This document shows, in pieces, positions 3,096 to 39,085 of a DNA stretch of 50,219 bases (within the stretch, counting starts at the first letter, position 1; each line of letters opens with the position of its first letter). The notes below the pieces were generated by a model that was given only the letters and a program-made list of their open reading frames with translations, was not told where the DNA came from and did no database searches. The position numbers and the translations under genes were made by a program. The stretch comes from Shigella phage phi2457T. The stretch lies in the sequence record MH917278, one strand, 5' to 3'.

Positions 3096-3106
3096 GGATT
3101 GAAATC

Positions 3107-4301: not shown

Positions 4302-4316
4302 CACGAATTGCTAAAC
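4298..4316 (+). promoter_or_regulatory. conserved intergenic element copy
   Basis: atagcacgaattgctaaac, hairpin aaggcca/tggcctt with gatatagt in loop. Confidence 0.5.
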
Positions 4317-4381
4317 CTTCCGCAAGGCCATTTGATATAGTGGCCTTATTGAAGCACGGCAACCAATCAGAGGAATCAGCT

Positions 4382-4588
4382 ATGGCTACACGACTCACGC
4401 AGTGGCAGATTTACGACAAGGCTTCACGCCTTCGTGAATCACTTCGAGGTCTGACACCGAACGATCGCATAGAAATCATCGGTCATGCATTGCACGAACT
4501 AACGCCGCATGACGTAACCTATCATTCTTGCGGCAATAAATTTTGGAACGTAACATTCGAGGTGAAGGAAGATGAGCAAAACTCATAA
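4382..4588 (+). CDS. hypothetical protein (68 aa)
   Basis: Internal ATG (MATRLTQ) preceded by conserved leader aaccaatcagaggaatcagct. Confidence 0.45.
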   Translation: MATRLTQWQIYDKASRLRESLRGLTPNDRIEIIGHALHELTPHDVTYHSCGNKFWNVTFEVKEDEQNS

Positions 4589-4859
4589 ATTAAAAATCGC
4601 CACGGTACATTTCATTGGGGTAATGAACGGAACAAAAACGGCAGAGTTCCGCATCAATGACCGCAACTTCCAGCCTGGAGATATCCTGGAGCTATGCGAG
4701 TTCGATCGTGACGAGTTTACCGGGTGGGAAGTTCACGCCAGGGTGTCCGATGTTACAGACGTGACGCCATACATCAATCGCGGGTATGACGATCAGGAAT
4801 GCGACTTCACGCAATACGTGATGTTATCAATCAAACCTTACAGGAAGGTTAGACCATGA
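4572..4859 (+). CDS. hypothetical protein (95 aa)
   Basis: ORF track; SD gaagga; overlaps neighbours by a few nt (translational coupling). Confidence 0.45.
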   Translation: MSKTHKLKIATVHFIGVMNGTKTAEFRINDRNFQPGDILELCEFDRDEFTGWEVHARVSDVTDVTPYINRGYDDQECDFTQYVMLSIKPYRKVRP

Positions 4860-5494
4860 AATTTGAATGCGTATCAAGTGACGGAACGGGATTTAAGTGG
4901 GGAAAAATCTACGAAGGCGCTCGCGTCAATAACGACAGCTTCGTTGTCGTGGATGAGCACGGTAGCAATGTGAACATCATCCGTCGTCACGAATACCAAG
5001 AAATTTTCCTGCCGTATGGCGGTAGTTCAAAATATATCTTCCATCGAATCGTGGATGGTGTTAAATTTAACGACGTAATCGAAGCAATCAACCAACTGCA
5101 TAATAAAGAGGTAAAATTTATGAAATTCGAATGTATCAGTGATAACACCAAAAAATTTACCGTCGGCAAAATTTACGACGTTCCCTCTGAGCACGCTAAG
5201 CACACGGCTGTAATTACCGACGACACGGGCCGCAACCGCATTGCAACCGTAACTCACAACGGCGAGGGTCTTCGCTGGAATAGCGGCGGCACTAAGTTTG
5301 CAACGTTCGGCAAGAAGCGCAAGCGCACTTTTTGCGTAAATGGCAAGGTTACAGCAAACAAGATCCACAACGTCAAGCCATCGGAAGTTGATCGTAAGCC
5401 AGCGACGAAGTTTGAAGAGAAAGCAGATTTGTCTGGTCTGGCTATCGCTCTTGTTCTCCTGGTCGCTTCTATTTCGCTGATGTTCATCATGTAA
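4856..5494 (+). CDS. membrane-anchored protein with internal tandem duplication of the paralogous small domain
   Basis: MKFECVSSDGTGFKWGKIYEG... repeated as MKFECISDNTKKFTVGKIYDV...; C-terminal hydrophobic segment LAIALVLLVASISLMFIM. Confidence 0.5.
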   Translation: MKFECVSSDGTGFKWGKIYEGARVNNDSFVVVDEHGSNVNIIRRHEYQEIFLPYGGSSKYIFHRIVDGVKFNDVIEAINQLHNKEVKFMKFECISDNTKKFTVGKIYDVPSEHAKHTAVITDDTGRNRIATVTHNGEGLRWNSGGTKFATFGKKRKRTFCVNGKVTANKIHNVKPSEVDRKPATKFEEKADLSGLAIALVLLVASISLMFIM

Positions 5495-5642
5495 TGTTAA
5501 CGGGGAATCGGCTCTGAACGGTTCCCCTTTCTTTTGGAGAAAATTCTATGCCAGACTTTGATAACTGGAAAAACGAGCCGCCATCATTTCAGGAGTTGCT
5601 ATTCTGCCTCCTGGTTCTGACAATATCTCTTAAGGGTGTTTT

Positions 5643-5861
5643 ATGGCTACTATCATGACAGCGGAAGATGCAGCGCGTGACGCAGTGGAAGGGATGCGCC
5701 CAAATACCTCCAGAATCGCACACTACTACAATTTTGACGTGTCGGCAGTGCAGCTGGTCCATGAAATTTTAAGGCTTCCACAAGTCGATTCAGCGCGACT
5801 GGTGACGTGCTTAAAAAATTATTTTTGCATCACTATTAAAACGAATAGCACGAATTGCTAA
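5643..5861 (+). CDS. hypothetical protein (72 aa)
   Basis: ORF track; weak SD; 3' end overlaps the conserved element. Confidence 0.35.
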   Translation: MATIMTAEDAARDAVEGMRPNTSRIAHYYNFDVSAVQLVHEILRLPQVDSARLVTCLKNYFCITIKTNSTNC

Positions 5862-5864
5862 AAC
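5845..5864 (+). promoter_or_regulatory. conserved intergenic element copy
   Basis: atagcacgaattgctaaaac, hairpin ggggaat/attcccc. Confidence 0.5.
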
Positions 5865-5918
5865 CTATCAAGGGGAATGCGCTATGATTCCCCTACACCA
5901 ACGAACGAGGGAACACTC

Positions 5919-6365
5919 ATGAAACATTTGATTTGCATTGATACACCTAACAATGAACACACCCTGCACGGCATTGGAATGTTCAAAGGCCACTACATGA
6001 CAGCAAGCATTTATGATGCGCATCGAGGCGATGGCGATCTAATGATTACTTCAAAAGAAGTTAATCCGTACATCATGCAGAATCTCGGGAACAATGAGTA
6101 TATGGCTTACGGCTGCAACGCGGTGTACAAGCATATCAAGATCCGCAAGCGCGTAGTTCGCGCATTCAAGAAGATTGCAATTAAATACTGGAAGATGAGC
6201 AAGAAGGACGCCGGAACATGGGCGCGTAACGTTGCTGATTCATACTTCTATCGTAACGGTGAGTCGTGCTACTTTTTGATCGATGATATTCATGACAATT
6301 ACGGCGGCTCATTCAGTCAGGAAGAGTTTGATAGCTGGGCTGAATACGAGATCAGTTGCTGGTAA
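5919..6365 (+). CDS. hypothetical protein (148 aa)
   Basis: Internal ATG (MKHLICID) after leader acgaacgagggaacactc. Confidence 0.5.
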   Translation: MKHLICIDTPNNEHTLHGIGMFKGHYMTASIYDAHRGDGDLMITSKEVNPYIMQNLGNNEYMAYGCNAVYKHIKIRKRVVRAFKKIAIKYWKMSKKDAGTWARNVADSYFYRNGESCYFLIDDIHDNYGGSFSQEEFDSWAEYEISCW

Positions 6366-6384
6366 TAGCACTAATTGCTAAAAC
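6365..6384 (+). promoter_or_regulatory. conserved intergenic element copy
   Basis: atagcactaattgctaaaac, hairpin aagggcat/atgccctt with gatagaa loop. Confidence 0.5.
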
Positions 6385-6448
6385 TTGCTCAAGGGCATTT
6401 GATAGAATGCCCTTCGTTGAGTTAAGCAACCAATCATAGGAATAAATC

Positions 6449-6982
6449 ATGGATAAAATTACCATTTGGGGTCAAACTATCAACCTGTTTCTCGGCACGC
6501 GACGCGTGGCAATCTTTGACTTTGACGGAACGCTTAGTGATGGATCAAAGCGCCTTCACCTGTTGCCGACAAAGGATTTGCACTTAACTGAAAGCTGGTC
6601 TGAGTTTAACCGAGCGGCAATATTTGATAACCCAATCCAGAGCACGATTGAGGTTATGAACTCTATGTTTGCTGCCGGGTATCACGTAATAGTTTTAACC
6701 GGGCGAAGTGATGAGGTTCGTTACGCATCTGAGTTATGGCTTAAGCATCACGGTGCGAGATATGATTACTTAGTCATGCGACCGCACACAGACAACAGGA
6801 AAGACACGGTGATGAAAGAAGAAGCGGTGCGAGCGATCGGTATTGAAAACATCCTGGCAGCTTGGGATGACTCACCGCAAATTATTCCATTATTCCGGTC
6901 GCTTGGAATAACAACATATGCGGTAGTTGACTATGGCGATAACATTCACGATCATTTAAAATCGCACGGGGTAGAGAAATGA
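6449..6982 (+). CDS. HAD-superfamily phosphatase-like protein
   Basis: Motif I FDFDGTL, motif II-like VLTGRS, motif IV-like WDDSP; resembles the phosphatase domain of polynucleotide kinase/phosphatase or a nucleotidase. Confidence 0.55.
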   Translation: MDKITIWGQTINLFLGTRRVAIFDFDGTLSDGSKRLHLLPTKDLHLTESWSEFNRAAIFDNPIQSTIEVMNSMFAAGYHVIVLTGRSDEVRYASELWLKHHGARYDYLVMRPHTDNRKDTVMKEEAVRAIGIENILAAWDDSPQIIPLFRSLGITTYAVVDYGDNIHDHLKSHGVEK

Positions 6983-7090
6983 ACCTATACGAATTTATTG
7001 CAGCACATCCGGTATTGACGGTTATCATCCTGCTAATCATCAATCACACCATCATCAATATGGCAAAATTATTTTTAGGGAGATACTAAC

Positions 7091-7663
7091 ATGAAAACAG
7101 CTATCATTTTAAACGGCGCTCCTGGAGCAGGCAAGGACACTATCGGATGCATCCTGGCTGACACTTACGATCATGTAGCTTTGCGCAGCTTCAAAGCACC
7201 AATGTTTGAGATTGCTCGGGCAATCCTGGGTGAGGCTAACTACGAGTATTTCATGTTCTTGTATGGGAACCGTATATACAAAGAAGAGCCAGATTCCATC
7301 CTGAACGGTAAAAGCCCGCGCCAGTTTATGATCTGGATTAGCGAGGAAGTCATTAAGCCACAGTTCGGAAATCGCTTCTTCGGCATGCGAGCGGAAAGCA
7401 AGGTCAAAGAATCAGACTCCCTTTCGGTATTTACTGATGGTGGATTCAAAGATGAGGTATTGCAGATGATTGAAGGTGATATCCAGGTCAAGCTATGCCG
7501 AATCCACCGCAAAGGCTGCAACTTTGACAACGACAGTCGTGATTATATTTACCTGGAAGATATGATCGGGGTTAATGGTTATCAGGAGTGTGATTTCTTC
7601 TCTGTCGAAGGTCATCCAGAAATTACCGCTCAGCACATAGCCGCTACGTTCATCAACAAATAG
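7091..7663 (+). CDS. P-loop nucleotide kinase (dNMP-kinase-like)
   Basis: Walker A GAPGAGKDT at N-terminus; size ~190 aa typical of small NMP/dNMP kinases. Confidence 0.5.
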   Translation: MKTAIILNGAPGAGKDTIGCILADTYDHVALRSFKAPMFEIARAILGEANYEYFMFLYGNRIYKEEPDSILNGKSPRQFMIWISEEVIKPQFGNRFFGMRAESKVKESDSLSVFTDGGFKDEVLQMIEGDIQVKLCRIHRKGCNFDNDSRDYIYLEDMIGVNGYQECDFFSVEGHPEITAQHIAATFINK

Positions 7664-16196: not shown

Positions 16197-16215
16197 TTTA
16201 ACAAAAAGTGCTATT
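16197..16215 (-). promoter_or_regulatory. conserved intergenic element copy, inverted relative to local transcription
   Basis: tttaacaaaaagtgctatt (reverse complement AATAGCACTTTTTGTTAAA) upstream of major capsid gene. Confidence 0.4.
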
Positions 16216-19960: not shown

Positions 19961-19980
19961 TTTTAACAAAAAGTGCCATT
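19961..19980 (-). promoter_or_regulatory. conserved intergenic element copy, inverted relative to local transcription
   Basis: ttttaacaaaaagtgccatt upstream of tail chaperone gene. Confidence 0.4.
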
Positions 19981-26170: not shown

Positions 26171-29100
26171 ATGATTCAAAAAGTGATAAGTGGATCTAAA
26201 GGTGGATCACAAAAGCCGCATAAGCCAGTTGAGATGGAAGATAATCTAATCTCAATCAACAAAATCAAGATTCTTCTGGCAGTATCTGATGGCGAGGTTG
26301 ACGAAACATTCAACCTTAAGCAACTGATGTTTAACTCAGTCCCGGTGCAAAACGAGGATGGCTCTTTTAACTTTGAGGGCGTAACAGCAGAGTTCAGGCC
26401 GGGTACGCAGACTCAGGAATACATTAAGGGCATGGAGGATAGCTCCAGCGAGGTAACTGTAAACCGTGAGATTACTACCGATAATCCATACACGATCTCA
26501 GTAACCAACAAGACGCTGTCGGCAATCCGTATTAAAATGTTCATGCCTCGCGGCGTACGCATTGAAAGCAACGGCGATAAAAACGGCGTTCGCGTTGAGT
26601 ACGAAGTGCAGCAAGCGGTTGATAGTGGTTCGTTTGAGACTATTCTTACTGACGTAATCGAAGGCAAAACAATGTCAGGTTACGATCGAAGCCGTCGTGT
26701 AAACCTGCCAAACTTCAATAACCAGGTTATATTCAGGATTGTTCGAAAGACTCCAGATTCTGATAATTCAAACGTTGTTGATGCGATTCAGGTAAAGAGC
26801 TATGCCGAGGTGATTGATGCCAAATTCCGTTACCCTCTGACAGGTCTTCTTTTCGTAGAGTTCGACTCGAAGATGTTCCCAAACCAGTTACCTACGATCT
26901 CAATTCGTAAGCGATGGAAGATTATAAACGTTCCGTCAAACTACGATCCGGAATCACGAACTTATAACGGAAATTGGGATGGCACTTTTAAGAAGGCGTG
27001 GACTAATAATCCGGCTTGGGTTCTTTATGACTTGATGATTAATCAGCGTTACGGACTGGATCAGAAAGAGCTTGGAATATCTGTCGATAAATGGGCGCTA
27101 TATGAGGCGGCGCAATATTGCGACCAGATGGTTCCTGACGGGAAAGGCGGTACGGAGCCTCGCTACCTTTGCGACGTGATAATTCAGTCACAGACTGATG
27201 CGTACAAGGTGATTCGAGACATTTGCTCAATCTTCCGTGGTATGAGCTTCTGGAATGGCGAAAGCATCTCGGTAATCATCGACAGACCGCGTGAGCCTGC
27301 TTACATCTTCACTAACGACAACGTTGTTAATGGTGACTTCTCCTATACGTTCGCAAGCGAAAAGAGTATGTACACGACGTGTAACGTGATGTTTGACGAC
27401 GAGCAAAACATGTATCAACAGGACGTTGAGCCAGTATTCGATCGTGAGGCGACTCTGCGGTTCGGTAATAACGTAACCAGCATTACAGCGATCGGTTGCA
27501 CACGTCGAAGCGAGGCCAACCGACGTGGGAGATGGATTCTGAAAACCAACCTCCGCAGCACTACGGTAAACTTCGCTACCGGTCTTGAGGGTATGATCCC
27601 GACAATCGGAGATGTTGTGGCAATAGCTGATAACTTCTGGTCAAGTAACTTGACGATGAACCTATCAGGGCGCTTGCTCGAAGTGTCTGGAAGTCAGATT
27701 TTCTTGCCGTTCCGGGTGGATGCACGCGCGGGTGACTTTATTATCGTAAATAAGCCAGATGGCAAGCCCGTGAAGCGCACAATCTCAAGTGTTAGTGCGG
27801 ATGGTAAGACTATAGAGGTTAACATTGGCTTTGGCTTTCCTGTGAAGCCTAACACGGTATTCGCTATCGACCGCACAGACATTGCGTTACAGCAGTACGT
27901 CGTGACAAAAATCGATAAGGGTGATGACGATGAGGAATTTACCTACAAGATTACTGCGGTTGAGTACGATCCTAACAAGTACGATGAGATTGATTACGGT
28001 GTTAACATAGACGACAGACCGACGAGTATCGTTGAACCAGACCAGATCCCTAGACCGGAAAACGTGCAAGTGTCATCTGAGTCACGAATCGTCCAGGGGA
28101 TGAGCGTAGAGACGATGATTGTAAGCTGGGATAAAGTGCCGTACGCAGTTTTCTATGATGTTCAGTGGAGAAAGGATAACGGCAACTGGCAAAATGTACC
28201 ACAGACAGCAAACAAAGAGGTATACGTTGAAGGTATTTACGCTGGCAACTATCAGGTTCGCGTTCGCTCCGTAGCTGGTTCCGGTACGACTTCAGGATGG
28301 TCAAATATCGTAGCTGCGACGCTGACGGGCAAACAAGGTGAGCCGGGTCGACCGATTAACCTTACAGCTACGGATGATGTTGTTTTTGGTATCCGTACAA
28401 AATGGGGGTTCTCTGATGGTTCTGGAGATACGGCCTATACAGAGTTGCAACAGTCACCGGATGGAACGGTTGACAATGCGAGTTTACTCTCTCTGATCCC
28501 GTATCCGCAGCATGAGTATTATCATTCACCGATGCCGGGCGGGAATATTGTGTGGTATCGGGTAAGGACGGTTGATAGGATCGGTAACGTGTCTCAGTGG
28601 ACTGATTTTGTCAGAGGTATGGCATCAACAAACGTTGACGATATCATTGGGGAGATTTCTGTCGATATCGAAAACTCGCCTGGTTACGAGTGGCTTGTTG
28701 ATAACGCAACCGACAACGCGGCGCAGAACGCAGCTAACGCAGAGGCAGCAATAGAAAACGCGCTCGCCAATGACAAAGACGCGATCTATATGAAGAAGGA
28801 GAACGGAAAACGAAAGGCTGAGTACACGAAATCACTGAAACTTATTGCTGATGAGACGCAGGCACGAGTGACGGCGATCGAGCAATTGAAAGCAAGTTTT
28901 GGCGATCAGATTAGCGCAAGCAATAGTGAATTGCGTGAAGTTATCGCAACTGAGACAGGGGCGCTATCTCGTGAGATTGACCAACTCAAGGCAGAGATTG
29001 GTGATGATATTCAGGCAAGTTTGACCGATATCCGTGAAGCCATCGCGAACGAGACTGAGGCGAGAACGCAAGCTGACTTAACGTTAAGCGCGCAACTTGG

Positions 29101-29620
29101 GAATAACGAGGCAGCACTTTCTCAAAAACTTGACTCGTGGAGTAACGCCGATTCGACTGGTGCAATGTACGGCGTCAAGCTGGGCCTTAAGTATAATGGT
29201 CAGGAATACAGCGCAGGTATGGCTATGTCTCTGATTGGTTCTGGTGCGGCTGTTAAGGCTCAGATTCTTTTTGAGGCATCTCGATTTGCAATCATGACTG
29301 GCATGAACGGTCAGACTCAGTACCCATTCGTTGTTGAGAATGGCCAGGTTATTCTAAGTAGCGCGATCATCAAGGATGGCTTTATTACTAATGCCATGAT
29401 TGGAAACTGGATTCAATCTAACAATTGGGATGGGAATAATGGATGGGCCATAAACAAGAATGGCGACGCTTCATTCATGAATGCAACAGTGAGGGGTAGA
29501 ATTTACGCAAATAACGGAGAGTTTGCATTTAACGGAACAAATAACACGGTTCAGATAAACAATAACGGTATCACGGTCAACTTACCTAACGGGGGTCGAG
29601 TGGTTGTTGGTGTCTGGTAA
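26171..29620 (+). CDS. central tail fibre / host specificity protein (lambda gpJ-like)
   Basis: 1149 aa; position after I; FN3-like region and C-terminal coiled-coil with repeated units (ELREVIATETGA / TDIREAIANETEA). Confidence 0.85.
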   Translation: MIQKVISGSKGGSQKPHKPVEMEDNLISINKIKILLAVSDGEVDETFNLKQLMFNSVPVQNEDGSFNFEGVTAEFRPGTQTQEYIKGMEDSSSEVTVNREITTDNPYTISVTNKTLSAIRIKMFMPRGVRIESNGDKNGVRVEYEVQQAVDSGSFETILTDVIEGKTMSGYDRSRRVNLPNFNNQVIFRIVRKTPDSDNSNVVDAIQVKSYAEVIDAKFRYPLTGLLFVEFDSKMFPNQLPTISIRKRWKIINVPSNYDPESRTYNGNWDGTFKKAWTNNPAWVLYDLMINQRYGLDQKELGISVDKWALYEAAQYCDQMVPDGKGGTEPRYLCDVIIQSQTDAYKVIRDICSIFRGMSFWNGESISVIIDRPREPAYIFTNDNVVNGDFSYTFASEKSMYTTCNVMFDDEQNMYQQDVEPVFDREATLRFGNNVTSITAIGCTRRSEANRRGRWILKTNLRSTTVNFATGLEGMIPTIGDVVAIADNFWSSNLTMNLSGRLLEVSGSQIFLPFRVDARAGDFIIVNKPDGKPVKRTISSVSADGKTIEVNIGFGFPVKPNTVFAIDRTDIALQQYVVTKIDKGDDDEEFTYKITAVEYDPNKYDEIDYGVNIDDRPTSIVEPDQIPRPENVQVSSESRIVQGMSVETMIVSWDKVPYAVFYDVQWRKDNGNWQNVPQTANKEVYVEGIYAGNYQVRVRSVAGSGTTSGWSNIVAATLTGKQGEPGRPINLTATDDVVFGIRTKWGFSDGSGDTAYTELQQSPDGTVDNASLLSLIPYPQHEYYHSPMPGGNIVWYRVRTVDRIGNVSQWTDFVRGMASTNVDDIIGEISVDIENSPGYEWLVDNATDNAAQNAANAEAAIENALANDKDAIYMKKENGKRKAEYTKSLKLIADETQARVTAIEQLKASFGDQISASNSELREVIATETGALSREIDQLKAEIGDDIQASLTDIREAIANETEARTQADLTLSAQLGNNEAALSQKLDSWSNADSTGAMYGVKLGLKYNGQEYSAGMAMSLIGSGAAVKAQILFEASRFAIMTGMNGQTQYPFVVENGQVILSSAIIKDGFITNAMIGNWIQSNNWDGNNGWAINKNGDASFMNATVRGRIYANNGEFAFNGTNNTVQINNNGITVNLPNGGRVVVGVW

Positions 29621-29624: not shown

Positions 29625-29650
29625 AAGGGGCCGATTGGCCCCTTTTTTTA
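29625..29650. terminator. bidirectional terminator between convergent genes
   Basis: Hairpin ggggccgattggcccc flanked by A-run and T7. Confidence 0.65.
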
Positions 29651-30613
29651 ATACATGTTCGGAGTGAAAGGAATTGGCATTGAAATGTTTATATTGAAGG
29701 GGAATTGCGCTCCGCTTTGGGTGGAATAATTACCTACTCTTGTTCCTGGGGCGCTTCTCACGTTACCTCCGCTCATACACACGCCCTTGTATCGAATGTT
29801 ATTATATCCACCTGTAACTCTGCATATCGTACCTGTTCTTAGTATTGGGAAAAATCCACCACACCACTGCCACCCGTCATTTATCGCCATAGTCCCGCCG
29901 AGAACGAAGGGGCGTCTAACGCTTGAGAAGACGATCTGACCAGCAGGATTACTCATGGTTATTCCTGGCCCTGGGGGTGGTGGAGTGTTATTAAATATTA
30001 CGAGTTGCACGTATACGCTAGCGCCAACGTCATCAATCCCGTTATAGTTTGCATCCCTGCACCATATTGTATTGCCGTCAGATTCAAGTGTTACGTTTGG
30101 ATTATCCCACATACCGAAAGGAACGCCCTGCACTGGCAACTGAGCCTGACCGTTAACCTGAATCCCCCCAACAAATGCAGCGCTCATCAATCTGGCGTTA
30201 TTCGGTATAGCTGCGAAGTTCGTTGAATCGTTAACAAGTATCCCCTGATTTCCAGCCTGAGCGGGGAGGATTTCGTAGCAGTTTCCATAAAATCTCATCC
30301 TCCTTCCACCGTGCCCGTTAAAATTACCTACCGTTATTCGTCCGGTTGAATCATTTACCTTCTGAAAACTAGTCAAATAATACACCTCCGGGATGTAATC
30401 CATATCGTCTATGTAGATAGCCTGAGATGGAAGGCAAAAAGCGGTAGATCCTGGACTCATTTGCAGACCAAAATCAAAAACCGATCCAGATGAATCAACC
30501 CCGTCAGCCTGTATAGGTCCACACCATGACGGGGCGCGAAGCCCTGAAGTTATCTCCATTGCCGGGCGACCGTCGTTTAGGTTTATATATATTCCTTGCC
30601 CCATAATTACCAC
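29648..30613 (-). CDS. putative receptor-binding protein (T5 pb5-like role, inferred)
   Basis: 321 aa Gly/Asn-rich beta-type protein co-transcribed downstream of a lipoprotein gene, convergent with J; inference from arrangement. Confidence 0.4.
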   Translation of the reverse strand: MVIMGQGIYINLNDGRPAMEITSGLRAPSWCGPIQADGVDSSGSVFDFGLQMSPGSTAFCLPSQAIYIDDMDYIPEVYYLTSFQKVNDSTGRITVGNFNGHGGRRMRFYGNCYEILPAQAGNQGILVNDSTNFAAIPNNARLMSAAFVGGIQVNGQAQLPVQGVPFGMWDNPNVTLESDGNTIWCRDANYNGIDDVGASVYVQLVIFNNTPPPPGPGITMSNPAGQIVFSSVRRPFVLGGTMAINDGWQWCGGFFPILRTGTICRVTGGYNNIRYKGVCMSGGNVRSAPGTRVGNYSTQSGAQFPFNINISMPIPFTPNMY

Positions 30614-30837
30614 TCTTTAGTTTTGATTGACACCTTGCCGCTAAAGTTGCCCTGATCGTCGTCGGATGACAGACCTTTGAATCGCATATCAATTTCGCCA
30701 GCAGGAACCTTTTGACCATCAACGAATCGCATCATGCAAGAACCGTATGCGTAAGTAACGCAGTCGCCATTTTTAAGATTCTGAGCACAACCAGTCAGGA
30801 TGAATGCCGCAGCGATAATGGTGATTAACTTTTTCAT
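30607..30837 (-). CDS. superinfection-exclusion lipoprotein (Cor/Llp-like)
   Basis: 76 aa; signal peptide MKKLITIIAAAFILTGC with lipobox LTGC; adjacent to putative receptor-binding gene. Confidence 0.6.
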   Translation of the reverse strand: MKKLITIIAAAFILTGCAQNLKNGDCVTYAYGSCMMRFVDGQKVPAGEIDMRFKGLSSDDDQGNFSGKVSIKTKEW

Positions 30838-31363: not shown

Positions 31364-32428
31364 ATGTTCCAGGTATTCACATCAAGTCAGCTTTCTAATG
31401 ACGAGTATCATAGCAACGAAGGTTGGGCGGCAGAGTATGTAAGCGGTTCTAGCCTTGCAGAAATTTATCAGACTTGCCCGGCTAACTGGCGATTCAAGAA
31501 GAACGAGACTACTAAAGCGCTGGATTTCGGCACTCAGTCGCACACTAACTTTGAGAGTCGAGATCTGTTTACTGCAACGTATGCGCGTTGTCCTGCTCCG
31601 TCAGAGTTTAAAGATCTTATTACTTCGCAAACGGCACTGGCAGCAAAATTAAAATCTTTTGGCCTGAAAGGCACATCCGGTAAGCAGTACCCTGACCTCA
31701 TCAAAATGATGGTTGATTGCGGTGAAGATCTCAATGTTCAATATCTTATTGAACTGATTGCTGAAGCTGAGGCGCGCGCTGAAGGAAAGCAACTGGTTGA
31801 CGCTGATAAATATGATGCCTGTATGAAGATGAGGGCCATTCTTGAGCAAAACCCAGATCATGAAGCGTGCATCAATAGCGAAACTGCGCAGCGTGAGATC
31901 TCAATTTTCGGTGAGATATCCGGCGTCAAGGTTAAGGTTCGACTTGACCATTTGGACTACAAAGAGAATGTTCCAGGTCGTGTGCTGACTGGTTATGATG
32001 AGAATGGCGATCCGGTATTTGAAGACGTGATTTTTCCTGAAGCTCTGATTATCACTGACTTCAAAACCACGATGAGCGCCAACCCGTTAGAGTTCCCGAG
32101 ACTGGCATACAATCACGGGTATTATCTTAAAATGGCCTTACAGCATGACCTATTGCGGCGTGCAATTCAGGCTGGAGCATTTGAAGGAAACTTCCCGGAA
32201 GATATTCCGATCGTAGTTCGATTGCTGGCACAGGAGAAAAAGGAACCTTACATTGCCCTTGCTTACCGCATGACTATGGAGCAAATCAGAATAGGTCGCA
32301 ATCAGTATATTAGCGTGGTCCACACTTATAAGGCTTGCTCTGAGATGGACGTTTGGCCAGGATATGCTGGCGACGCAAGCGAGATCGAACTTGAAACGCC
32401 GTCATGGGTACGATATCAAAACAAGTAA
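31364..32428 (+). CDS. putative recombination exonuclease (PD-(D/E)XK-like)
   Basis: 354 aa directly upstream of ERF and SSB genes; motif IITDFKTT consistent with D-x-K nuclease signature; assignment tentative. Confidence 0.45.
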   Translation: MFQVFTSSQLSNDEYHSNEGWAAEYVSGSSLAEIYQTCPANWRFKKNETTKALDFGTQSHTNFESRDLFTATYARCPAPSEFKDLITSQTALAAKLKSFGLKGTSGKQYPDLIKMMVDCGEDLNVQYLIELIAEAEARAEGKQLVDADKYDACMKMRAILEQNPDHEACINSETAQREISIFGEISGVKVKVRLDHLDYKENVPGRVLTGYDENGDPVFEDVIFPEALIITDFKTTMSANPLEFPRLAYNHGYYLKMALQHDLLRRAIQAGAFEGNFPEDIPIVVRLLAQEKKEPYIALAYRMTMEQIRIGRNQYISVVHTYKACSEMDVWPGYAGDASEIELETPSWVRYQNK

Positions 32429-32502
32429 ACGGCACAAATAGCTAAACAAATAATTAATGAGGTGTTATAATGCACCTCATACACCAATCAGGAGAAGTTA
32501 AG

Positions 32503-33150
32503 ATGCAATTATCACCGGAAACAAACGAAATCCTCCCAGCACTGTTTAATGCTCGCAATAAATTCGCGAAGGCAAAGAAGGACGCCAAAAACAATCACCT
32601 GAAGAACTCATACGCAACTCTTGATGCGATGATGGCGGCAGTTAGCCCAGCGTTAACCGATAACGATATCATGATCCTGCAATCAATGCTGGATACCAGT
32701 ACAGAAACGACTTTCCATCTTGAAACTATGCTGATTCACAAATCAGGGCAGTGGGCCAAATTCTTCATGATGATGCCGATTGCAAAACGCGATCCTCAAG
32801 GTGTAGGTTCCGCAATGACTTATGCTCGACGCTACTCTCTCGCTGCGGCGCTTGGTATTAGTCAGAGTGACGACGATGCGCAGCTTGCAGTGAAATCCGT
32901 CAAGGACTGGAAAAAAGAACTTGATGCGTGCGAAGATATCGAATCACTGAAGGATGTATGGGCCAGCGCCTACCGTCAGACTGACACAGCGAGCAAATCA
33001 ATAATTCAGGATCATTACAACGCACTGAAGGCGAAGTTTGAGATCGGCAAGGCTCGCGGCATTCGCCCGGCGCAACCGGAACAGAAAAAACAGGTTGAAG
33101 CAACGAGCGCGAAACCTGTACAATCTCAATCAATCACCAACTTTGAATAA
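32503..33150 (+). CDS. ERF-family single-strand annealing protein
   Basis: Internal ATG after leader accaatcaggagaag; N-terminal region (LPALFNARNKFAKAKKDAKNNHLKNSYATLDAMM) resembles ERF recombinases; adjacent to SSB. Confidence 0.6.
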   Translation: MQLSPETNEILPALFNARNKFAKAKKDAKNNHLKNSYATLDAMMAAVSPALTDNDIMILQSMLDTSTETTFHLETMLIHKSGQWAKFFMMMPIAKRDPQGVGSAMTYARRYSLAAALGISQSDDDAQLAVKSVKDWKKELDACEDIESLKDVWASAYRQTDTASKSIIQDHYNALKAKFEIGKARGIRPAQPEQKKQVEATSAKPVQSQSITNFE

Positions 33151-33196: not shown

Positions 33197-33610
33197 ATGC
33201 ATATTATTACTGGCGAGATCCGAAAAGAACCTAAGATTCTTGAACGTAACGGAGGGAATACTTATATAATCGAACTGGCAGAGAGCTACAAGCCTCGAGA
33301 TGGAGATCGAGAATACACCAACTACACATTCTTTTTTAGCGACGGTGGAAAGCCTGGCCTTGCTGACTGGTATCGTGAAGCGTTCCAGGTTGGTCGCGTC
33401 GTATCAGTATCATGCGAGACGTTGAAGATCTCATCACGTGAACACAATGGAACGGTTTACAATTCATTGCAGGCCGCTGACTTCCCGAAGTTGGTATTTA
33501 GTCAACGAGGACAAAGCAATCAACAACGATCACCGCAGCAACAACAGCGAACGCAATCACAACCACAGCCAAATCCTCAATCAACTTTCGATGATGATAT
33601 CCCGTTCTAA
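33197..33610 (+). CDS. ssb: single-stranded DNA-binding protein
   Basis: 137 aa, Gln/Pro-rich linker and acidic C-terminal tail FDDDIPF typical of SSB. Confidence 0.8.
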   Translation: MHIITGEIRKEPKILERNGGNTYIIELAESYKPRDGDREYTNYTFFFSDGGKPGLADWYREAFQVGRVVSVSCETLKISSREHNGTVYNSLQAADFPKLVFSQRGQSNQQRSPQQQQRTQSQPQPNPQSTFDDDIPF

Positions 33611-33612
33611 CA

Positions 33613-33640
33613 AAAATCCCCGCAATGCGGGGATTTTATC
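33613..33640. terminator. bidirectional terminator
   Basis: Hairpin atccccgcaatgcggggat flanked by A-run and T-run, between convergent genes. Confidence 0.65.
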
Positions 33641-35423
33641 ATTTGGACTTCAACATTTTTATCTCTTCTTGTAACTCTTCAACTTTCTTTATTGTATCCT
33701 GTAAAGCTCTCATAGTGTCAAGCAATAAAGGAGTTGTATCAAGCTCAAGCCTTTCAACTTTTGGCCCGTTTAGCTCGTGGCTCTCATACATCCTTCTCTT
33801 AACATATAGATTGTCGATCTCTTCTATCTCCTGAGCTATGACACCTCGCCTTACCCTTTCTTGCTCATCATCGTTAAAGATAAAGTTCCTAAATCTCATT
33901 GATTTTATGTTGTTGTATGCAATGCTTGATTCATCATCCTTTATGCTGTGCTTTATATTTCTGTCAGATGCCGGAATCTGTTGGAAACTTCCAGCCCCTT
34001 GCGGTCCAGCGTAAGATATTTGCCCTGAAGCCATAAACCTGAAATGCATTTGCAAACCAATATTGCCTGCCCCATCCCTATCTTGAGCACCTACTGATAT
34101 TTGTGCCCTGGGCCATTCAGGATTGCCCGTAGTCATCATGCCAAAAGCTACGCCGCCAACATACCCTTGACCCCTTGTATCACACGATCCAGCAATAAGT
34201 GATTGATAGTTTTCAGCGCCACTATCGGCAGTGTAAGCATTACCCTGGAAGCATGAAGCAGACCACATCTGGTTGTAACCCATAGATGTTTTCTGGCATA
34301 AAAACTGATTAGCTCTAAATCTATTGTTAGTCTCGAAGTAGTTTGCCCCTTCATAAAATAATAAAGCCCCAGCATAACCATTATCGCTATGTTCTTTTCT
34401 GACGTAAATCCCTGGTGTGGATATTCCATCAGGTGACATAATCATCAATGATGACAATATGGACTGACTACCCCAATTAGAACCGTTCCATGAGTTCCTT
34501 CCTGCCCCTATAGCTCCCGTGGTGTTAACAGTAAGAAAGTTAACAGCATCATTTTCACCTAACCCAATATTTTTTCTTGACTCTTTTTTATCATCAAGAC
34601 CAGCTAGATTGCCATCCTTAGTTAAAAGATTTTCAGCATTGATGCTGTTAGCTGCGTCTTTTGCTTCTTGAGCACTTACCGCAGCAGCATCTTTTGAGCT
34701 TACCGCTTCGTCACGCGCTGCCTGAGCGTCGTTTTTTGCAGAGGTAGCCGTTTGTGCTGCCGTTTGAGCGTCATTAACGTAACCTGACAGATCGCCTTTC
34801 GCGTCATTAATTGCCTGAATCGCCGCCGCTTCTTCTGAGTCAATGTGAGTGATGGATGAATTTTCTTTTTGCTGCACATCGGTTATAGCCTGATCCTTAG
34901 CCGCATTGATGCTACCGACAGCACCGTCAACAATCTGTTGCGTCTGATTCTTGATTGAGTTAGTTTCATCGCGTGCAGCGTTGGCTGCGTCACGCGCTAA
35001 TTCAGCCTGATTTTGCGCAGCTTGAGAATCAGATTTCGCCTGATTCACATCAGCAACTATTTGCTCAAGTTTATTCATATCAAGCTGATTTATCAGGTCT
35101 ATAGCTTCCGCAATCTCAGTCTCTTTGCTTTGATAGTATCGCAGAGTCTCGGCGACGTTTTGAGCTAATCCGTTAACGGTTAGAGAGTCATTAAGTAGGA
35201 TCACATACTTACCGTCATCGGCAGTCTGACCATCAGTAGAGATAGCCTTTAATTCTGTATCACTAACGATATCGCTAATCACAGCCAGCTTAATTGGTTG
35301 CTCAAGGAACACGATAGTTGCACCTACGCGAATAAGAGCAAGCTGATCTTTCCATTTTGTATCGGTTCCGTGAACCGTTCCGTCTGCATCCATTGATGCA
35401 GTACCGCGTCTGTATAAAGCCAT
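33639..35423 (-). CDS. side tail fibre with C-terminal S74-type intramolecular chaperone domain
   Basis: 594 aa; Ala/Gln/Asp-rich coiled-coil repeats; C-terminal region SDRNIKHSIKDDESSIAYNNIKSMRFRNFIFND...RRGVIAQEIEEID matches the auto-cleaving chaperone-of-endosialidase domain. Confidence 0.75.
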   Translation of the reverse strand: MALYRRGTASMDADGTVHGTDTKWKDQLALIRVGATIVFLEQPIKLAVISDIVSDTELKAISTDGQTADDGKYVILLNDSLTVNGLAQNVAETLRYYQSKETEIAEAIDLINQLDMNKLEQIVADVNQAKSDSQAAQNQAELARDAANAARDETNSIKNQTQQIVDGAVGSINAAKDQAITDVQQKENSSITHIDSEEAAAIQAINDAKGDLSGYVNDAQTAAQTATSAKNDAQAARDEAVSSKDAAAVSAQEAKDAANSINAENLLTKDGNLAGLDDKKESRKNIGLGENDAVNFLTVNTTGAIGAGRNSWNGSNWGSQSILSSLMIMSPDGISTPGIYVRKEHSDNGYAGALLFYEGANYFETNNRFRANQFLCQKTSMGYNQMWSASCFQGNAYTADSGAENYQSLIAGSCDTRGQGYVGGVAFGMMTTGNPEWPRAQISVGAQDRDGAGNIGLQMHFRFMASGQISYAGPQGAGSFQQIPASDRNIKHSIKDDESSIAYNNIKSMRFRNFIFNDDEQERVRRGVIAQEIEEIDNLYVKRRMYESHELNGPKVERLELDTTPLLLDTMRALQDTIKKVEELQEEIKMLKSK

Positions 35424-35443
35424 AGCGTAAACTCCTTAAGTAA

Positions 35444-35462
35444 ATAGCACGAATTGCTAAAC
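35444..35462 (+). promoter_or_regulatory. conserved intergenic element copy within an extended inverted repeat
   Basis: atagcacgaattgctaaac followed 27 nt later by inverted half gtgctat; lies between two minus-strand genes. Confidence 0.4.
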
Positions 35463-35499
35463 ACAGATTTTATCATTGTGCTATTGGTCTTGCAACGGG

Positions 35500-35526
35500 C
35501 AATAAAAAACCGCCCGAAGGCGGTTA
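35500..35526 (-). terminator. rho-independent terminator (minus strand)
   Basis: Hairpin accgcccgaaggcggt with A6 on plus strand (T6 on minus) after the primase-like gene. Confidence 0.6.
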
Positions 35527-36459
35527 GAGTAGGTCACTTGCTGAGAATAACTTAGCTTGCATTCCTGAACGGTATCCTCCAGGATTCGGGATGATTATTT
35601 TTAATTGCCGGTCGTCAGCCATGTATAAAGTATCCTTATCTGAAGGTTCGCACGCCACTCTTACCTCGCGATCTCCTTTGTATCTGTACGCAACCATTTC
35701 GAGATTTTCAGGAGTGAAGCAGGCCCACACCTCTTGCTTTGTGTGAAATGCAATATGCTGAGCATCAATCCAATTAAGGCATAAGTAGATCGCTTTTTCA
35801 GTTTTACCAGTCACAGCAACCGAGCAACTTGTGTATTTCTTAGCGTAAAATGACTCCCTTCCTTCCTCGTCAATAATCAAAATATTGCAAAACTCGTCAT
35901 CAAGCCCGTCCTCATGCACAAGTTGACACGGGATAGTGTGAAATACGCTCTCCCCGCCATCGTCGCGACGTTTTACGCCAACGTCGAATGATTCAGTAGG
36001 TAGCGATTCAAACATGCTTAGAGGCGTCTTTACGCGCTTCTCTGTGCGCTCCATGACTTTCATCACCGCTTCATGATCTGCCATCATGACATTGACACCA
36101 GATACCGGAGTTCGGCGCGCTTTCTTGTTTGCCTTGACGATGTATTCCTGCGGAACTTTTCCGAGAAATCTTCCCAATATATTTATGCATTCGCTATACG
36201 GCATACCAGTTAATTTCATCAACCAACCGATCCCGGAGTCGTTACCGCATGAGTTGCAGATTGCACCGCCGTCTCCTGGGGTATTCAGGTTGTCGGTCCA
36301 GCGAAAACGGTCTTTACCTCCACAGTTGGGGCAAGGTTGGTGCTTCTTGTTGAATACCTCGTTAGGCAATCCGCAGACTGACTGAAAAGCCTCACGCCAT
36401 AACCCCTTCATATACGGCAAGACGTCCTCTTTCTGAAACATCATAAACTCTTCGTTCAC
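35524..36459 (-). CDS. putative DNA primase (zinc-binding N-terminal domain)
   Basis: 311 aa; CPNCGGKDRF...CNSCGN zinc-ribbon near N-terminus; adjacent to helicase gene. Confidence 0.45.
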   Translation of the reverse strand: MNEEFMMFQKEDVLPYMKGLWREAFQSVCGLPNEVFNKKHQPCPNCGGKDRFRWTDNLNTPGDGGAICNSCGNDSGIGWLMKLTGMPYSECINILGRFLGKVPQEYIVKANKKARRTPVSGVNVMMADHEAVMKVMERTEKRVKTPLSMFESLPTESFDVGVKRRDDGGESVFHTIPCQLVHEDGLDDEFCNILIIDEEGRESFYAKKYTSCSVAVTGKTEKAIYLCLNWIDAQHIAFHTKQEVWACFTPENLEMVAYRYKGDREVRVACEPSDKDTLYMADDRQLKIIIPNPGGYRSGMQAKLFSASDLL

Positions 36460-36519: not shown

Positions 36520-36972
36520 TTAACTAAAAATGCTATTCGTCGTTCCAATATCTTCCTTCTTCACGACTCGCATAAACTTCTTGTTTTTGCATCGCTTCTC
36601 AAGGCACTTTCCGTTCCCATCAAACTTCAGATCGAATCGTAGCCATGCCGCCCGGAATCCTTTGCAACCCTGTCGGCGGTAAGCACGATGCGCTGCTTCA
36701 GCGCCTTGCCATGAAATCATATTGCGATCTTTCCAGCCTTGCACCGTCTGATTGCTAACTTTTAGAGCCTTTGCGCAGGCCGCAGGACCACCGTAATATT
36801 CGATAAGAGCATCCAATCGCGCTCTCAGTCCTGCGCGCGTTTCTTCTTTATGGATATAAAATCCGCAGCGCTGGCGAGGCTTTTTATCTTTACCGCGTCG
36901 TGTTCCGTTGTTACCATTGATGTGACGTTTATCGATTTCACCAGTAGACTCTGCGATACGTTTCATATTCAT
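36520..36972 (-). CDS. HTH DNA-binding protein (Cro/YdaS-like)
   Basis: Internal ATG with SD caggag; segment CAKALKVSNQTVQGWKDRNMIS looks like a helix-turn-helix. Confidence 0.45.
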   Translation of the reverse strand: MNMKRIAESTGEIDKRHINGNNGTRRGKDKKPRQRCGFYIHKEETRAGLRARLDALIEYYGGPAACAKALKVSNQTVQGWKDRNMISWQGAEAAHRAYRRQGCKGFRAAWLRFDLKFDGNGKCLEKRCKNKKFMRVVKKEDIGTTNSIFS

Positions 36973-36985
36973 CTTAATTCTCCTG

Positions 36986-37005
36986 TAGCACTTTTTGCTA
37001 AAAAC
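36986..37005 (+). promoter_or_regulatory. conserved intergenic element copy upstream of helicase
   Basis: tagcactttttgctaaaaac in divergent region. Confidence 0.45.
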
Positions 37006-37066
37006 GTTTACTGTATGCCGTGTATTATATCGTAAACGATACAACGATTCAAAGGATTAAATAGCC

Positions 37067-39085
37067 GTGACAATTAACATCAAAAAGCAAATCGCATTAC
37101 TTGGCGAGGACTATATAAAACGCACTCAAGAACGATTCACTGTTGGTGAGGTCGTTCCGTATCCGTACCAGGTTGTTGCTTATGCTGAGATCGCAAAACG
37201 CCTATCAAATTATGAGCATCCATTCTTTGTTAAAGCGTCAGTATCGGCGGGTAAGACCATCATTTTTGCTATGGTTGCAAAGCAGTGTCAAAAAATGGGC
37301 TTGAAAATGCTTGTGCTGGCACGCCAGGGTGAGATTGTCGATCAGGATAGTGAAGAGATCGACAATTTCGGGGTGACTAACTCTATATTCTCAGCGTCAC
37401 TTGGAATCAAGTCTTGCTACTTCCCGATCGTGGTAGGCTCTGAGGGTACTGTTGCAAATGGTTTAAATAATGAGCTAGCTGATTTTGTCCCTCACGTAAT
37501 CGGGATAGATGAATGTCACCAGGTGGATTGGGAAGACCTTGCACAAGCCATAGATGGCAAGGAAACGATGGAACAGATGCGGGAAGAGAAGGGAAAAATC
37601 ATTATGAATGGGGAGGTTCCTCTGATTGGTAATGATGGGAAGCCTCTACTTGGAACTAAGCGAAGCCAATACACGATCGTAATCATGGAAATGATGCGCC
37701 GCTGCAAAGAAACTCACGGTCACGACCTCAGAATATTTGGTATGACTGGATCTGAATTTCGTGGCGTAGTTCCTATTCTTGTTGAGAATCCAAAGGCGTT
37801 AGGCTTCTGGCGTGAGCGCGTTACTGATATAGACACCAACTACCTTATTGAGTTTGGCTCAGTTGTTCCTACTATATTCGGCTCGACGGACGGAGTTCAC
37901 TACGATCTTGATAAATTTAAGGCATCAAGCGAGGATGGGGTACAGGACTTTACAGAGAAAGATATGAAGGCAATGGAAGATGAGATCCTTCATGATAAAT
38001 CTCTTACTCAGCGAATCATGCAAATGGTTGCTAAAAAGGCTGAAGAGCGTAACGCAGTCCTGATTACATGCGCTGGGGTGCGTCACTGCAAAGAGGCGGC
38101 AGCGGCACTACCGCCTGGAAGCACATATGCAATTATTACTGGCGACACAGACACTAAAACGCGCAAGAAGATTCTTGATGATGTGAGGGCAGGGAAAATT
38201 AAATACACCTTTCAGGTCATGGCGCTAACTACTGGCGTTAACGTTCCAAACTGGGATTTCAGTGTAATACTTCGCAAGATAGGATCTCTCACCTTGCTGA
38301 TTCAGCTTTTGGGTAGGGGTATGCGACTTCTTAAATCATGGCAGGTTGCTGAAGGGATGGTTAAGCAAGACCATCTTGTATGGGATTTCGCAGGCACGAT
38401 GGATGAGTTGGGGCAGCTTTATTTCGATCCTATACTTGAGCAGGCTCAGTTCCAGAAGCGATTTGAGAACGGAAAAGACCCGAAAAAGTGTCCGAAATGT
38501 GGTTGCGTAAATAGCTTCTACGCTCGCCGATGCGTTAACGTTATCGACGGTGAACGCTGCGATCATTTCTGGACTTCTCAGATTTGCGAGGACCAGGTTG
38601 ATGAACGTACCGGGAAAATTCTTGTTAAAGGGTGCGGTGCCGAGAATGACGTTGTTGCCCGAGTCTGTCGCTGTTGCGATGTTTCTCTTGTTGATCCTAA
38701 CCTTAAGTTATCCGGTAAGGCGTACACTAAGAATGACTGGTACGAGGTCAAGAATTTTGAAGTTACGTTAACCAAAAACCAAAATGGTGTGATATACAAA
38801 TACACACTTATTAACGACGATGGTGATGAGTTCAAGGCGTATGAAAAATTCTTCCCTGAGTCAGACTCTAAGATTTGCGGTACGCTATGGAAAACGAAAG
38901 GAGTATTACCTCACGTATCAGATCCTAAAATGCGTCGCTACTTTATCGGAATGAAGAACGCTATCAAGATCGTGCAATACGCTCATCATATAGCGCATCC
39001 GGTACGCGTTACTCATAGACGCAACCAGAAGAAAGAAGATATTATTTCACGCAAAGATTTCGGTATGGAGGATATCCCGGAATGA
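37067..39085 (+). CDS. superfamily-2 DNA helicase
   Basis: 672 aa; Walker A SAGKT, DEAH-type motif IGIDECHQV, Cys-rich zinc-ribbon near C-terminus; GTG start inferred from ORF track. Confidence 0.75.
   Translation: MTINIKKQIALLGEDYIKRTQERFTVGEVVPYPYQVVAYAEIAKRLSNYEHPFFVKASVSAGKTIIFAMVAKQCQKMGLKMLVLARQGEIVDQDSEEIDNFGVTNSIFSASLGIKSCYFPIVVGSEGTVANGLNNELADFVPHVIGIDECHQVDWEDLAQAIDGKETMEQMREEKGKIIMNGEVPLIGNDGKPLLGTKRSQYTIVIMEMMRRCKETHGHDLRIFGMTGSEFRGVVPILVENPKALGFWRERVTDIDTNYLIEFGSVVPTIFGSTDGVHYDLDKFKASSEDGVQDFTEKDMKAMEDEILHDKSLTQRIMQMVAKKAEERNAVLITCAGVRHCKEAAAALPPGSTYAIITGDTDTKTRKKILDDVRAGKIKYTFQVMALTTGVNVPNWDFSVILRKIGSLTLLIQLLGRGMRLLKSWQVAEGMVKQDHLVWDFAGTMDELGQLYFDPILEQAQFQKRFENGKDPKKCPKCGCVNSFYARRCVNVIDGERCDHFWTSQICEDQVDERTGKILVKGCGAENDVVARVCRCCDVSLVDPNLKLSGKAYTKNDWYEVKNFEVTLTKNQNGVIYKYTLINDDGDEFKAYEKFFPESDSKICGTLWKTKGVLPHVSDPKMRRYFIGMKNAIKIVQYAHHIAHPVRVTHRRNQKKEDIISRKDFGMEDIPE

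Follow-up and report, generated by a model that had tools for sequence, protein, structure and literature searches.

In Shigella phage phi2457T (record MH917278), a T1-like siphovirus, the product of the minus-strand gene between ssb and the primase gene is very probably the lateral (side) tail fibre. The fibre carries a C-terminal Peptidase_S74 chaperone, and its gene occupies an ancestral slot in the phage backbone, where sequence comparisons support a hot spot of host-range recombination. The window, i.e., the whole stretch of 50,219 nucleotides that was analysed, belongs to Tunavirus (T1-like, Drexlerviridae) and has 99.5% nucleotide identity to Shigella phage Sfin-1. The first-pass annotation had described a 594-aa side tail fibre with an S74 domain on the minus strand, in agreement with the open reading frame, PHROG 1980 ('tail fiber protein', E 8e-98), Pfam PF13884 and the homologues. 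Sfin-1 CDS61 is 99.7% identical, and the annotation 'tail fiber protein' is carried by 60+ relatives. The start codon is the first ATG after a stop and is annotated likewise in seven of the eight Tunavirus genomes compared; the phiD2-2 gene has an annotated start further downstream, although it too contains this ATG. The gene, its position, the terminator, the conserved 5' end and the variable 3' end are already in the T1 record and the BASEL, Sfin-1 and TLS papers. Little in the finding is thus new, and its practical value is a precise engineering map, for which the coordinates are given in Table 1.

Table 1 Features of the fibre locus (positions in the window).
Feature	Position	Strand	Remarks
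Exonuclease VIII-like gene	31364-32428		Left of the fibre gene, beyond ssb
Erf gene	32470-33150		Left of the fibre gene, beyond ssb
SSB gene	33197-33610	+	Left neighbour; PHROG 44
Bidirectional intrinsic terminator	33612-33638	both	Common to ssb (+) and fibre (-)
Fibre gene (very probably lateral tail fibre)	33639-35423	-	594 aa, 64.5 kDa precursor; ORF, PHROG 1980, Sfin-1 CDS61
Peptidase_S74 intramolecular chaperone, aa 486-594	33642-33968	-	PF13884, last 109 residues
Distal receptor-binding region, aa 289-485	33969-34559	-	Gly/Ser/Asn-rich
Shaft, about aa 111-288	34560-35093	-	Ala/Gln/Asp/Asn-rich by composition; ends at junction ...KESRKNIGLGE
N-terminal anchor domain, about aa 1-110	35094-35423	-	Conserved across Drexlerviridae
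Shine-Dalgarno AAGGAG	35432-35437	-	8 nt upstream of the fibre ATG; kept in 8 Tunavirus genomes
Repeat core TAGCACGAATTGCTA	35445-35459	+	Near-palindrome TAGCA-N5-TGCTA; about +2 to +16 of the putative fibre promoter
Putative sigma70-like fibre promoter	35467-35495	-	Promoter scan: TTGCAA, 17 nt, TAAAAT, upstream TG
Intrinsic terminator of primase gene	35508-35525	-	-11.8 kcal/mol, then UUUUUU; conserved
Primase gene	35524-36459	-	Right neighbour; PF08273, PHROG 510
Regulator gene (Cro-like protein)	36520-37044		Right, past primase
Helicase gene	37067-39085		Right, past regulator

All four segments of the fibre gene are under purifying selection (dN/dS 0.02-0.20), with a dN/dS of 0.11 for the whole gene between the window and Shfl1, 0.02 for the anchor domain, and 0.02-0.06 across the anchor and chaperone domains. 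In the shaft (aa 111-288), synonymous sites of the window and T1 have diverged beyond the reach of the Jukes-Cantor correction. This bears on the idea of a relic gene, dispensable or in decay and with its product absent from virions, comparable to the frameshifted stf of laboratory lambda. Such a relic would fit the cryo-EM of laboratory T1, in which lateral-fibre density is absent (PMC11945409), and the homologue of vB_SsoS_008, which is split into two separate ORFs. However, the reading frame is intact in the window and most relatives, its catalytic residues are invariant, its promoter and Shine-Dalgarno sequence are conserved, and the protein was detected by mass spectrometry of Sfin-1 virions, so with the constraint on the coding sequence we regard a relic as very unlikely. 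The Sfin-1 LC-MS/MS list that includes CDS61 (PMC6714547) is weak evidence for virion incorporation, because coverage was 10% and non-structural proteins were listed too. The TLS virion has a 78 kDa protein that was related by its authors to the T5 L-shaped fibre (PMC11447400).

The fibre gene lies within a replication and recombination block, as the first-pass annotation had proposed, with the exonuclease VIII-like, Erf and SSB genes on one side and the primase, regulator and helicase genes on the other. The same annotation placed it far from the tail operon, which holds in a relative sense only, as 4 kb separate it from the gpJ homologue, whose end is at 29620. It had also taken the position as a sign of horizontal insertion. 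The slot is common to T1, seven other Tunavirus (JMPW1, SH2, 008, Shfl1, phiD2-2 and Lg3 among them) and the Tempevirinae phage PaulSarasin, in which the order primase-fibre-ssb is likewise found; this argues for an ancestral backbone location and gives no evidence for an inserted cassette. The layout is already annotated in the T1 record of 2004, and the BASEL paper describes both the synteny and the conserved 5' end (PMC8594841, S1C Fig).

A recent insertion of the whole gene as a foreign cassette, with the odd position and strand reflecting that event, would account for a fibre gene that runs opposite to ssb with its own promoter and terminator, and for whole-gene tracts whose similarity to SH2 and phiD2-2 exceeds that of the flanks. 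However, position and orientation are the same in T1 and every Tunavirus examined, and this synteny was already published. In most comparisons, roughly the divergence of the flanks is also seen in codons 1 to ~288, in the promoter region and in the terminator. Of the four gene segments, three have a GC content of 43-47%, against 45% for the window, and the S74 segment alone is lower (37%). We thus consider an inserted cassette highly improbable. The claim that the terminator and the repeat upstream of the gene form the cassette ends likewise fails, as both belong to the backbone and are kept whatever the fibre allele.

The part of the earlier claim that stands is the swapping. When the locus was compared among relatives, T1, JMPW1 and Lg3 aligned with the fibre at 85-91% identity over residues 1-~288, and the similarity broke off at residues 286-290 in all three alleles, with little or none beyond. 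Their tips are unrelated to that of the window phage, and they show no nucleotide similarity to the distal region 289-485. The distal modules found elsewhere carry Phage_tail_C_2 (in T1) or are different S74-bearing tips. In the T1 record and the BASEL 'LTF locus', slot, strand, promoter region and bidirectional terminator are the same, and residues 1-288 of T1 ST26 are 85% identical to the fibre; past residue 288, however, ST26 has an unrelated 440-aa distal part with Phage_tail_C_2 (PF25670, the Lambda Stf/T1-type tip; E 2e-60) and without S74. PF25670 is absent from the window fibre, whose tip is of the Sfin-1/Shfl1/SH2 type with an S74 chaperone. Against SH2, phiD2-2 and Shfl1, tracts of the fibre gene reach 97-100% identity, where the flanks stay at about 90%.

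Judged from these alignments, homologous recombination would usually exchange codons ~289-594, i.e., the gene's 3' half, from the intragenic junction to the shared terminator, and at times tracts of the whole gene. Host-range variation would come from such swaps. In other Drexlerviridae, point changes in a tail fibre alter the O-serotype range (PMC12090712) and exchange of Webervirus receptor-binding proteins switches receptor usage (PMC13463945); O-antigen dependence was reported for the Cronobacter and Webervirus relatives (PMC12090712, PMC13463945). For engineering, the natural swap points are codons ~286-290 (...KESRKNIGLGE) and the shared terminator, and the map also gives the predicted maturation site Ala485-Ser486.

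The fibre gene is likely its own transcription unit, with a putative sigma70-like promoter, a Shine-Dalgarno sequence and the shared terminator. The -35 and extended -10 elements are kept in eight Tunavirus genomes while the spacer is variable, and the terminator of the primase gene sets that gene apart from the fibre unit. The bidirectional terminator noted in the first-pass annotation is a hairpin, AAAATCCCCGC-AAT-GCGGGGATTTT (33613-33637), with folding energies of -17.6 kcal/mol (plus strand, z -5.2) and -17.7 kcal/mol (minus strand, z -4.3); a U-run comes after it on either strand. The T1 record has terminators on both strands at the equivalent site, and the hairpin was found with all fibre alleles compared. 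The fibre leader (35424-35470) showed no RNA structure above shuffled sequences (z-score 0.1).

The N-terminal region is the conserved anchor of Drexlerviridae fibres. A tblastn search with the fibre matched 1174 phage records, and among the matches listed, most cover residues 1-~130 only, Klebsiella Webervirus depolymerases included. Identity over these residues is 46-59% to Webervirus and other Drexlerviridae proteins, and residues 1-163 match Depo32 (GH-K3 gp32, PDB 7VYV; E 2e-42), whose conserved N-terminal anchor domain has been described (PMC10581125). The anchor and helical bundle of Depo32 are homologous to the fibre, and both proteins share the role of an exchangeable side receptor-binding protein of the Drexlerviridae tail. 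Depo32, in contrast, goes on into a beta-helix depolymerase without S74, and the GH-K3 depolymerase gene lies on the ssb strand adjoining gpJ, unlike the gene studied here. An enzymatic tailspike (a polysaccharide depolymerase like the Webervirus homologues) in place of a binding fibre, as the top PDB matches to the Klebsiella phage depolymerases 7VYV and 7LZJ might suggest, is hardly credible, since the similarity to both ends at residue ~163 (anchor and helical bundle), Pfam shows no beta-helix, lyase or hydrolase family in the fibre, and the distal region is just ~200 aa and followed by S74, like T5 pb1 and DT57C LtfA. The shaft that follows the anchor is presumed to be a trimeric coiled coil, and it carries an in-frame deletion in SH2 and phiD2-2.

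The C-terminal domain has the characteristics of an S74 chaperone. Pfam PF13884 matched residues 486-536 with 33.6 bits (gathering cut-off, 22 bits), and the catalytic motif S486-D-R-N-I-K491 starts at the domain boundary, with Lys491 five residues after Ser486; 24 homologues all have S486, D487 and K491. The domain closes the protein, with a helix at 563-593 predicted by AF2 (block pLDDT about 70-84). In an alignment with the C-terminus of DT57C LtfA (PDB 8HQZ_d), its Ser and Lys fall on those of LtfA, and the Ser-x4-Lys spacing equals that of Ser1264/Lys1269 in T5 pb1, in which the S1264A mutation stops cleavage (PMC4690869). The scissile bond is predicted to be Ala485-Ser486, which would give a mature fibre of 51.5 kDa and a chaperone of 13.0 kDa. 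The L-shaped fibres T5 pb1 and DT57C LtfA (PDB 4UW8, 8HQZ) share with the fibre a C-terminal chaperone of the auto-cleaving type and, by analogy, probably the function of binding O-antigen as an accessory fibre of a siphovirus. They are much longer (1076-1396 aa against 594 aa), and neither their receptor-binding domain nor their N-terminal attachment region has detectable sequence similarity to it.

Taken as a lateral fibre, the protein would work as follows. Three chains probably trimerise, the N-terminal ~110 residues would attach the fibre to the tail tip, and residues ~111-288 would form an alpha-helical shaft. The S74 domain, as an intramolecular chaperone, would make the tip fold correctly as a trimer, after which the domain would cut itself off by cleavage catalysed by Ser486 and Lys491. 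The distal tip (289-485) would bind a surface glycan, possibly of the LPS or O-antigen type, in a reversible first contact, after which gpJ-associated receptor-binding proteins would engage the terminal outer-membrane receptor.

Modules ~60% identical to the distal region occur in phage SP1 and on Dhillonvirus-like contigs of 44-45 kb. Sequence and profile searches of the PDB gave no match for residues 289-485, and an AF2 model of residues 262-594 from a 24-sequence alignment had a mean pLDDT of 46 and a pTM of 0.27, unusable for fold search. Phages sharing this tip were isolated on Shigella and rough E. coli K-12 alike, so the fibre may be dispensable, or may bind the LPS core instead of O-antigen.

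Upstream of the fibre gene is a copy of the 21-nt repeat whose consensus, aaATAGCACnnnTTGnTAAAA, was published for TLS (PMC11447400). The copy at 35441-35461 reads TAAATAGCACGAATTGCTAAA and matches the consensus, with the core matched exactly on the plus strand, in line with the inverted copy of a conserved element that the earlier reading had placed here. The window has about 26 copies of the core (40 strand-matches against 7.2 expected; none of 100 shuffles was as high), and at most of them a -10 hexamer stands at a constant distance of 22 nt. The core at the fibre gene is unchanged in seven of eight Tunavirus genomes and has one central change in JMPW1, and the adjoining spacers are variable. 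The published TLS, T1 and Rtp copies run along transcription and lie some 76 nt ahead of the start codons, whereas the fibre-side copy, which starts 21 nt from the ATG, is directed away from the gene and is without a conserved -10 of its own. Its orientation is also opposite to that of the copies preceding minus-strand genes, and no ORF is next to it on the plus strand. A plus-strand promoter at this copy, antisense to primase, was rejected, as its +22 hexamer (TATTGG) is without the final T and is unconserved. Likewise rejected was the previously proposed inverted repeat of AATAGCAC (35443-35450) and GTGCTATT (35477-35484), whose second arm varies in SH2, phiD2-2, T1 and Lg3. The repeat copy sits just downstream of the putative fibre promoter, which is an operator-like position.

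The function of the repeat in T1-like phages is a published open question. Tentatively, and with more doubt than confidence, we suggest that the 15-bp near-palindrome is a site for a dimeric phage or host regulator, for which the Cro-like protein is the best candidate, serving in activation or as an operator. At ~19 promoters in the window, which have a -10 only, the centre of the repeat falls near -42, where it would activate. It would be an operator at the fibre gene, and perhaps at the regulator promoter, where it lies just downstream of a full sigma70-type promoter. If true, this would assign a function to the repeat, and one factor would time lateral-fibre expression opposite to the remaining repeat-bearing promoters. 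Together, the constant 22-nt spacing at most copies and the operator-like placement at the fibre gene bear on the published question of how transcription is controlled in T1-like phages.

The gene order of the whole window agrees with that of the annotated T1 genome. The 3.5 kb around the fibre locus are 99.4-99.5% identical in the Shigella phages Sfin-1, -2, -4, -5 and -6, and 90-95% identical in about 30 further records, mostly Tunavirus (T1-like, Drexlerviridae). The fibre ORF is real: it encodes 594 aa from the first ATG past a stop, and of eight Tunavirus genomes compared, seven are annotated with the identical start; in the eighth, phiD2-2, the annotated start lies further downstream, yet the same ATG is present. 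Every element observed in the first-pass annotation (the ORF, its S74 domain, the neighbouring genes, the terminator and the conserved element) was confirmed.

The position of the gene had been taken as the sign of a horizontally exchanged host-range cassette, which was not borne out. The arrangement of ssb, a bidirectional terminator, the opposite-strand fibre gene and primase is common to T1, JMPW1, SH2, vB_SsoS_008, Shfl1, phiD2-2 and Lg3, and this layout was known from the BASEL paper (PMC8594841), according to which conservation and synteny hold for the recombination genes and primase/helicase on either side of the lateral tail fibre locus, and the fibre gene is common only at its far 5' end, the remainder being highly diverse. 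In PaulSarasin (Tempevirinae), four accessory genes stand between ssb and the lateral tail fibre gene, which is next to primase. The location of the fibre gene is ancestral, and its description as far from the tail operon holds in a relative sense only, because the gpJ homologue ends just 4 kb away. What the gene encodes is the lateral tail fibre already known from T1-like phages, and it carries an S74 intramolecular chaperone; the locus matches published descriptions throughout and is, without any departure from them, already known. In the Webervirus GH-K3, the exo-erf-ssb recombination module (2143-7224) is inverted relative to Tunavirus, so the depolymerase/fibre gene follows ssb on the same strand, facing and abutting gpJ.

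It is the distal half of the fibre that is a recombining host-range module, and the mosaicism anticipated among relatives is present at two scales, distal-module replacement and tract exchange. The flanks and codons 1 to ~288 are 80-98% identical to those of T1, JMPW1 and Lg3, and 33600-34600 has no detectable nucleotide match in these three genomes. Protein similarity ends at residue 288 (T1), 286 (JMPW1) or 290 (Lg3), at the motif ...KESRKNIGLGE, past which T1 carries Phage_tail_C_2, and JMPW1 and Lg3 carry other tips bearing their own S74 domains. Against flanks of ~90% identity, phiD2-2 is 97-100% identical from ~33214 to 35411, SH2 is similarly high over ~33530-34600 and 34720-35411, and Shfl1 has only 10 mismatches within 33562-34161. 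The distal module also occurs on 44-45 kb contigs (~60% identity) and, behind a different N-terminal anchor, in phage SP1 (~59%), and thus moves between phage groups. All four fibre segments are under purifying selection (dN/dS 0.02-0.20 vs Shfl1), and synonymous divergence from Shfl1 is 0.39 in the anchor and declines to 0.065 for the chaperone, a gradient consistent with a mosaic history. Within the shaft (34700-34990), SH2 and phiD2-2 lack ~230-270 nt in frame, and the gap adjoins an internal direct repeat (34705-34741 / 34984-35020, 73% identical), which suggests that shaft length varies through recombination between shaft repeats. In vB_SsoS_008, the fibre (3651-5409) and primase (5510-6398, both in its own coordinates) genes are each annotated as two ORFs, which could reflect frameshifts or sequencing errors.

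The anchor (residues 1 to ~110) matches 1174 phage records by tblastn, including Klebsiella Webervirus capsule depolymerases, and most of the matches listed align only with the first 120-140 fibre residues. Depo32 of GH-K3 (PDB 7VYV) aligns with residues 1-163 (E 2e-42), and the Ala/Gln/Asp/Asn-rich shaft (residues ~111-288) is the counterpart of the helical bundle in Depo32 and the Webervirus depolymerases. The distal region (residues 289-485) is rich in Gly, Ser and Asn, and sequence and profile searches gave no relative of solved structure for it; AlphaFold2 on residues 262-594 gave an unusable model (mean pLDDT 46). Pfam Peptidase_S74 scores above its cut-off at residues 486-536. Ser486, Asp487 and Lys491 are invariant across 24 homologues and line up with their counterparts in DT57C LtfA (PDB 8HQZ_d), and the Ser-x4-Lys spacing equals that of Ser1264/Lys1269 in T5 pb1, which is cut between Thr1263 and Ser1264 and stays uncut as the S1264A mutant (PMC4690869). 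By this analogy, maturation should split the 64.5 kDa precursor into a fibre of 51.5 kDa and a chaperone of 13.0 kDa.

For this very protein, the only direct evidence is virion LC-MS/MS of Sfin-1, which lists CDS61 at 10% coverage in a data set that also holds non-structural proteins (PMC6714547). The authors of the TLS study relate a 78 kDa virion protein of that phage to the L-shaped fibre of T5 (PMC11447400), O-serotype range in Cronobacter was altered by changing two residues of a Drexlerviridae fibre (PMC12090712), and recombinational exchange of receptor-binding proteins switched receptor use in Webervirus (PMC13463945). Two points call for caution: no density for lateral fibres was seen in cryo-EM of laboratory T1 (PMC11945409), and phages with the same fibre tip have been isolated with Shigella as well as with rough K-12 strains as hosts.

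Just past gpJ, 29648-30837(-) encodes a DUF6453 protein (321 aa) and a 76-aa Cor-like lipoprotein. This region is present in Shfl1 and vB_SsoS_008 and lacks a nucleotide match in T1, JMPW1, SH2, phiD2-2 and Lg3; at protein level, homologues are spread over Drexlerviridae and Dhillonvirus-like phages. The region is a second host-range locus that is swapped, the counterpart of the BASEL paper's 'bona fide RBP locus'.

The bidirectional terminator lies in the 28-nt ssb/fibre gap, as the hairpin AAAATCCCCGC-AAT-GCGGGGATTTT with a U-run on both sides (~-17.6 kcal/mol on each strand; z -5.2 and -4.3). At the homologous site, the T1 record annotates a terminator for each strand, and the hairpin is kept in every fibre allele, with 3' homology picking up again there.

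Features of the fibre locus and examples of the 21-nt repeat
Feature	Position	Strand or orientation	Detail
Fibre gene	33639-35423	-	lateral tail fibre
Left neighbours		+	exonuclease VIII-like, Erf and SSB genes
Right neighbours			primase and Cro-like regulator (both -), then helicase (+)
gpJ homologue	26171-29620
S74 intramolecular chaperone	residues 486-594
Shine-Dalgarno	8 nt upstream of fibre ATG		AAGGAG
Primase terminator	35525-35508	fibre gene orientation	upstream of fibre ATG
Predicted sigma70-like promoter	35495-35467	fibre orientation	TTGCAA-17-TAAAAT, TG upstream
Repeat core	35459-35445	read in gene orientation	TAGCAATTCGTGCTA, between fibre promoter and Shine-Dalgarno
Repeat copies, examples	1055, 1795, 2816, 4299, 5846, 6366, 7661, 36986, 39496, 40519, 42507	+
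Repeat copies, examples	44272, 46434, 46934, 48800, 49217, 50119	-

The conserved element noted at the fibre gene is a copy of the Drexlerviridae repeat aaATAGCACnnnTTGnTAAAA, described in TLS in 18 intergenic copies and noted also in T1, Rtp and Rogue1, with its role listed as an open question (PMC11447400). Allowing ≤2 mismatches on both strands, TAGCACNNNTTGYTA occurs 40 times in the window (7.2 expected), at ~26 distinct sites; T1 has 21 matches with ≤1 mismatch (0.6 expected). A TAnnnT hexamer stands exactly 22 nt past the 15-mer core in 19 of 26 copies (background 1.5%) and at any other offset in ≤2, and this fixed spacing is an addition to the published description. The core is a near-palindrome, TAGCA-N5-TGCTA, and if transcription is assumed to start ~7 nt past TAnnnT, it would span ~-49 to -35 with its centre near -42. 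Judged by established promoter architecture, this geometry would be that of a class II activator site where the promoter has no -35.

The copy at the fibre gene is atypical. The 15-mer at 35445-35459 is indeed the core and, as had been proposed, is inverted: it reads along the plus strand, against the gene, and points away from it. The hexamer at +22 reads TATTGG and is not kept among relatives. Relative to the sigma70-like fibre promoter, which is conserved, the copy occupies roughly +2 to +16, and 7/8 Tunavirus genomes have it unchanged next to spacers that vary. A putative operator-like role at the fibre gene is possible. The Cro-like regulator has a similar arrangement (promoter 37052-37024, repeat 36986-37000); at both 35445-35495 and 36986-37052 the core is downstream of a complete opposite-strand sigma70-like promoter, not upstream of a -10. 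Two further copies, 16199-16213(-) and 19964-19978(-), lie between plus-strand structural genes and are by their orientation antisense to the late operon, with T1 counterparts at 15071 and 18835.
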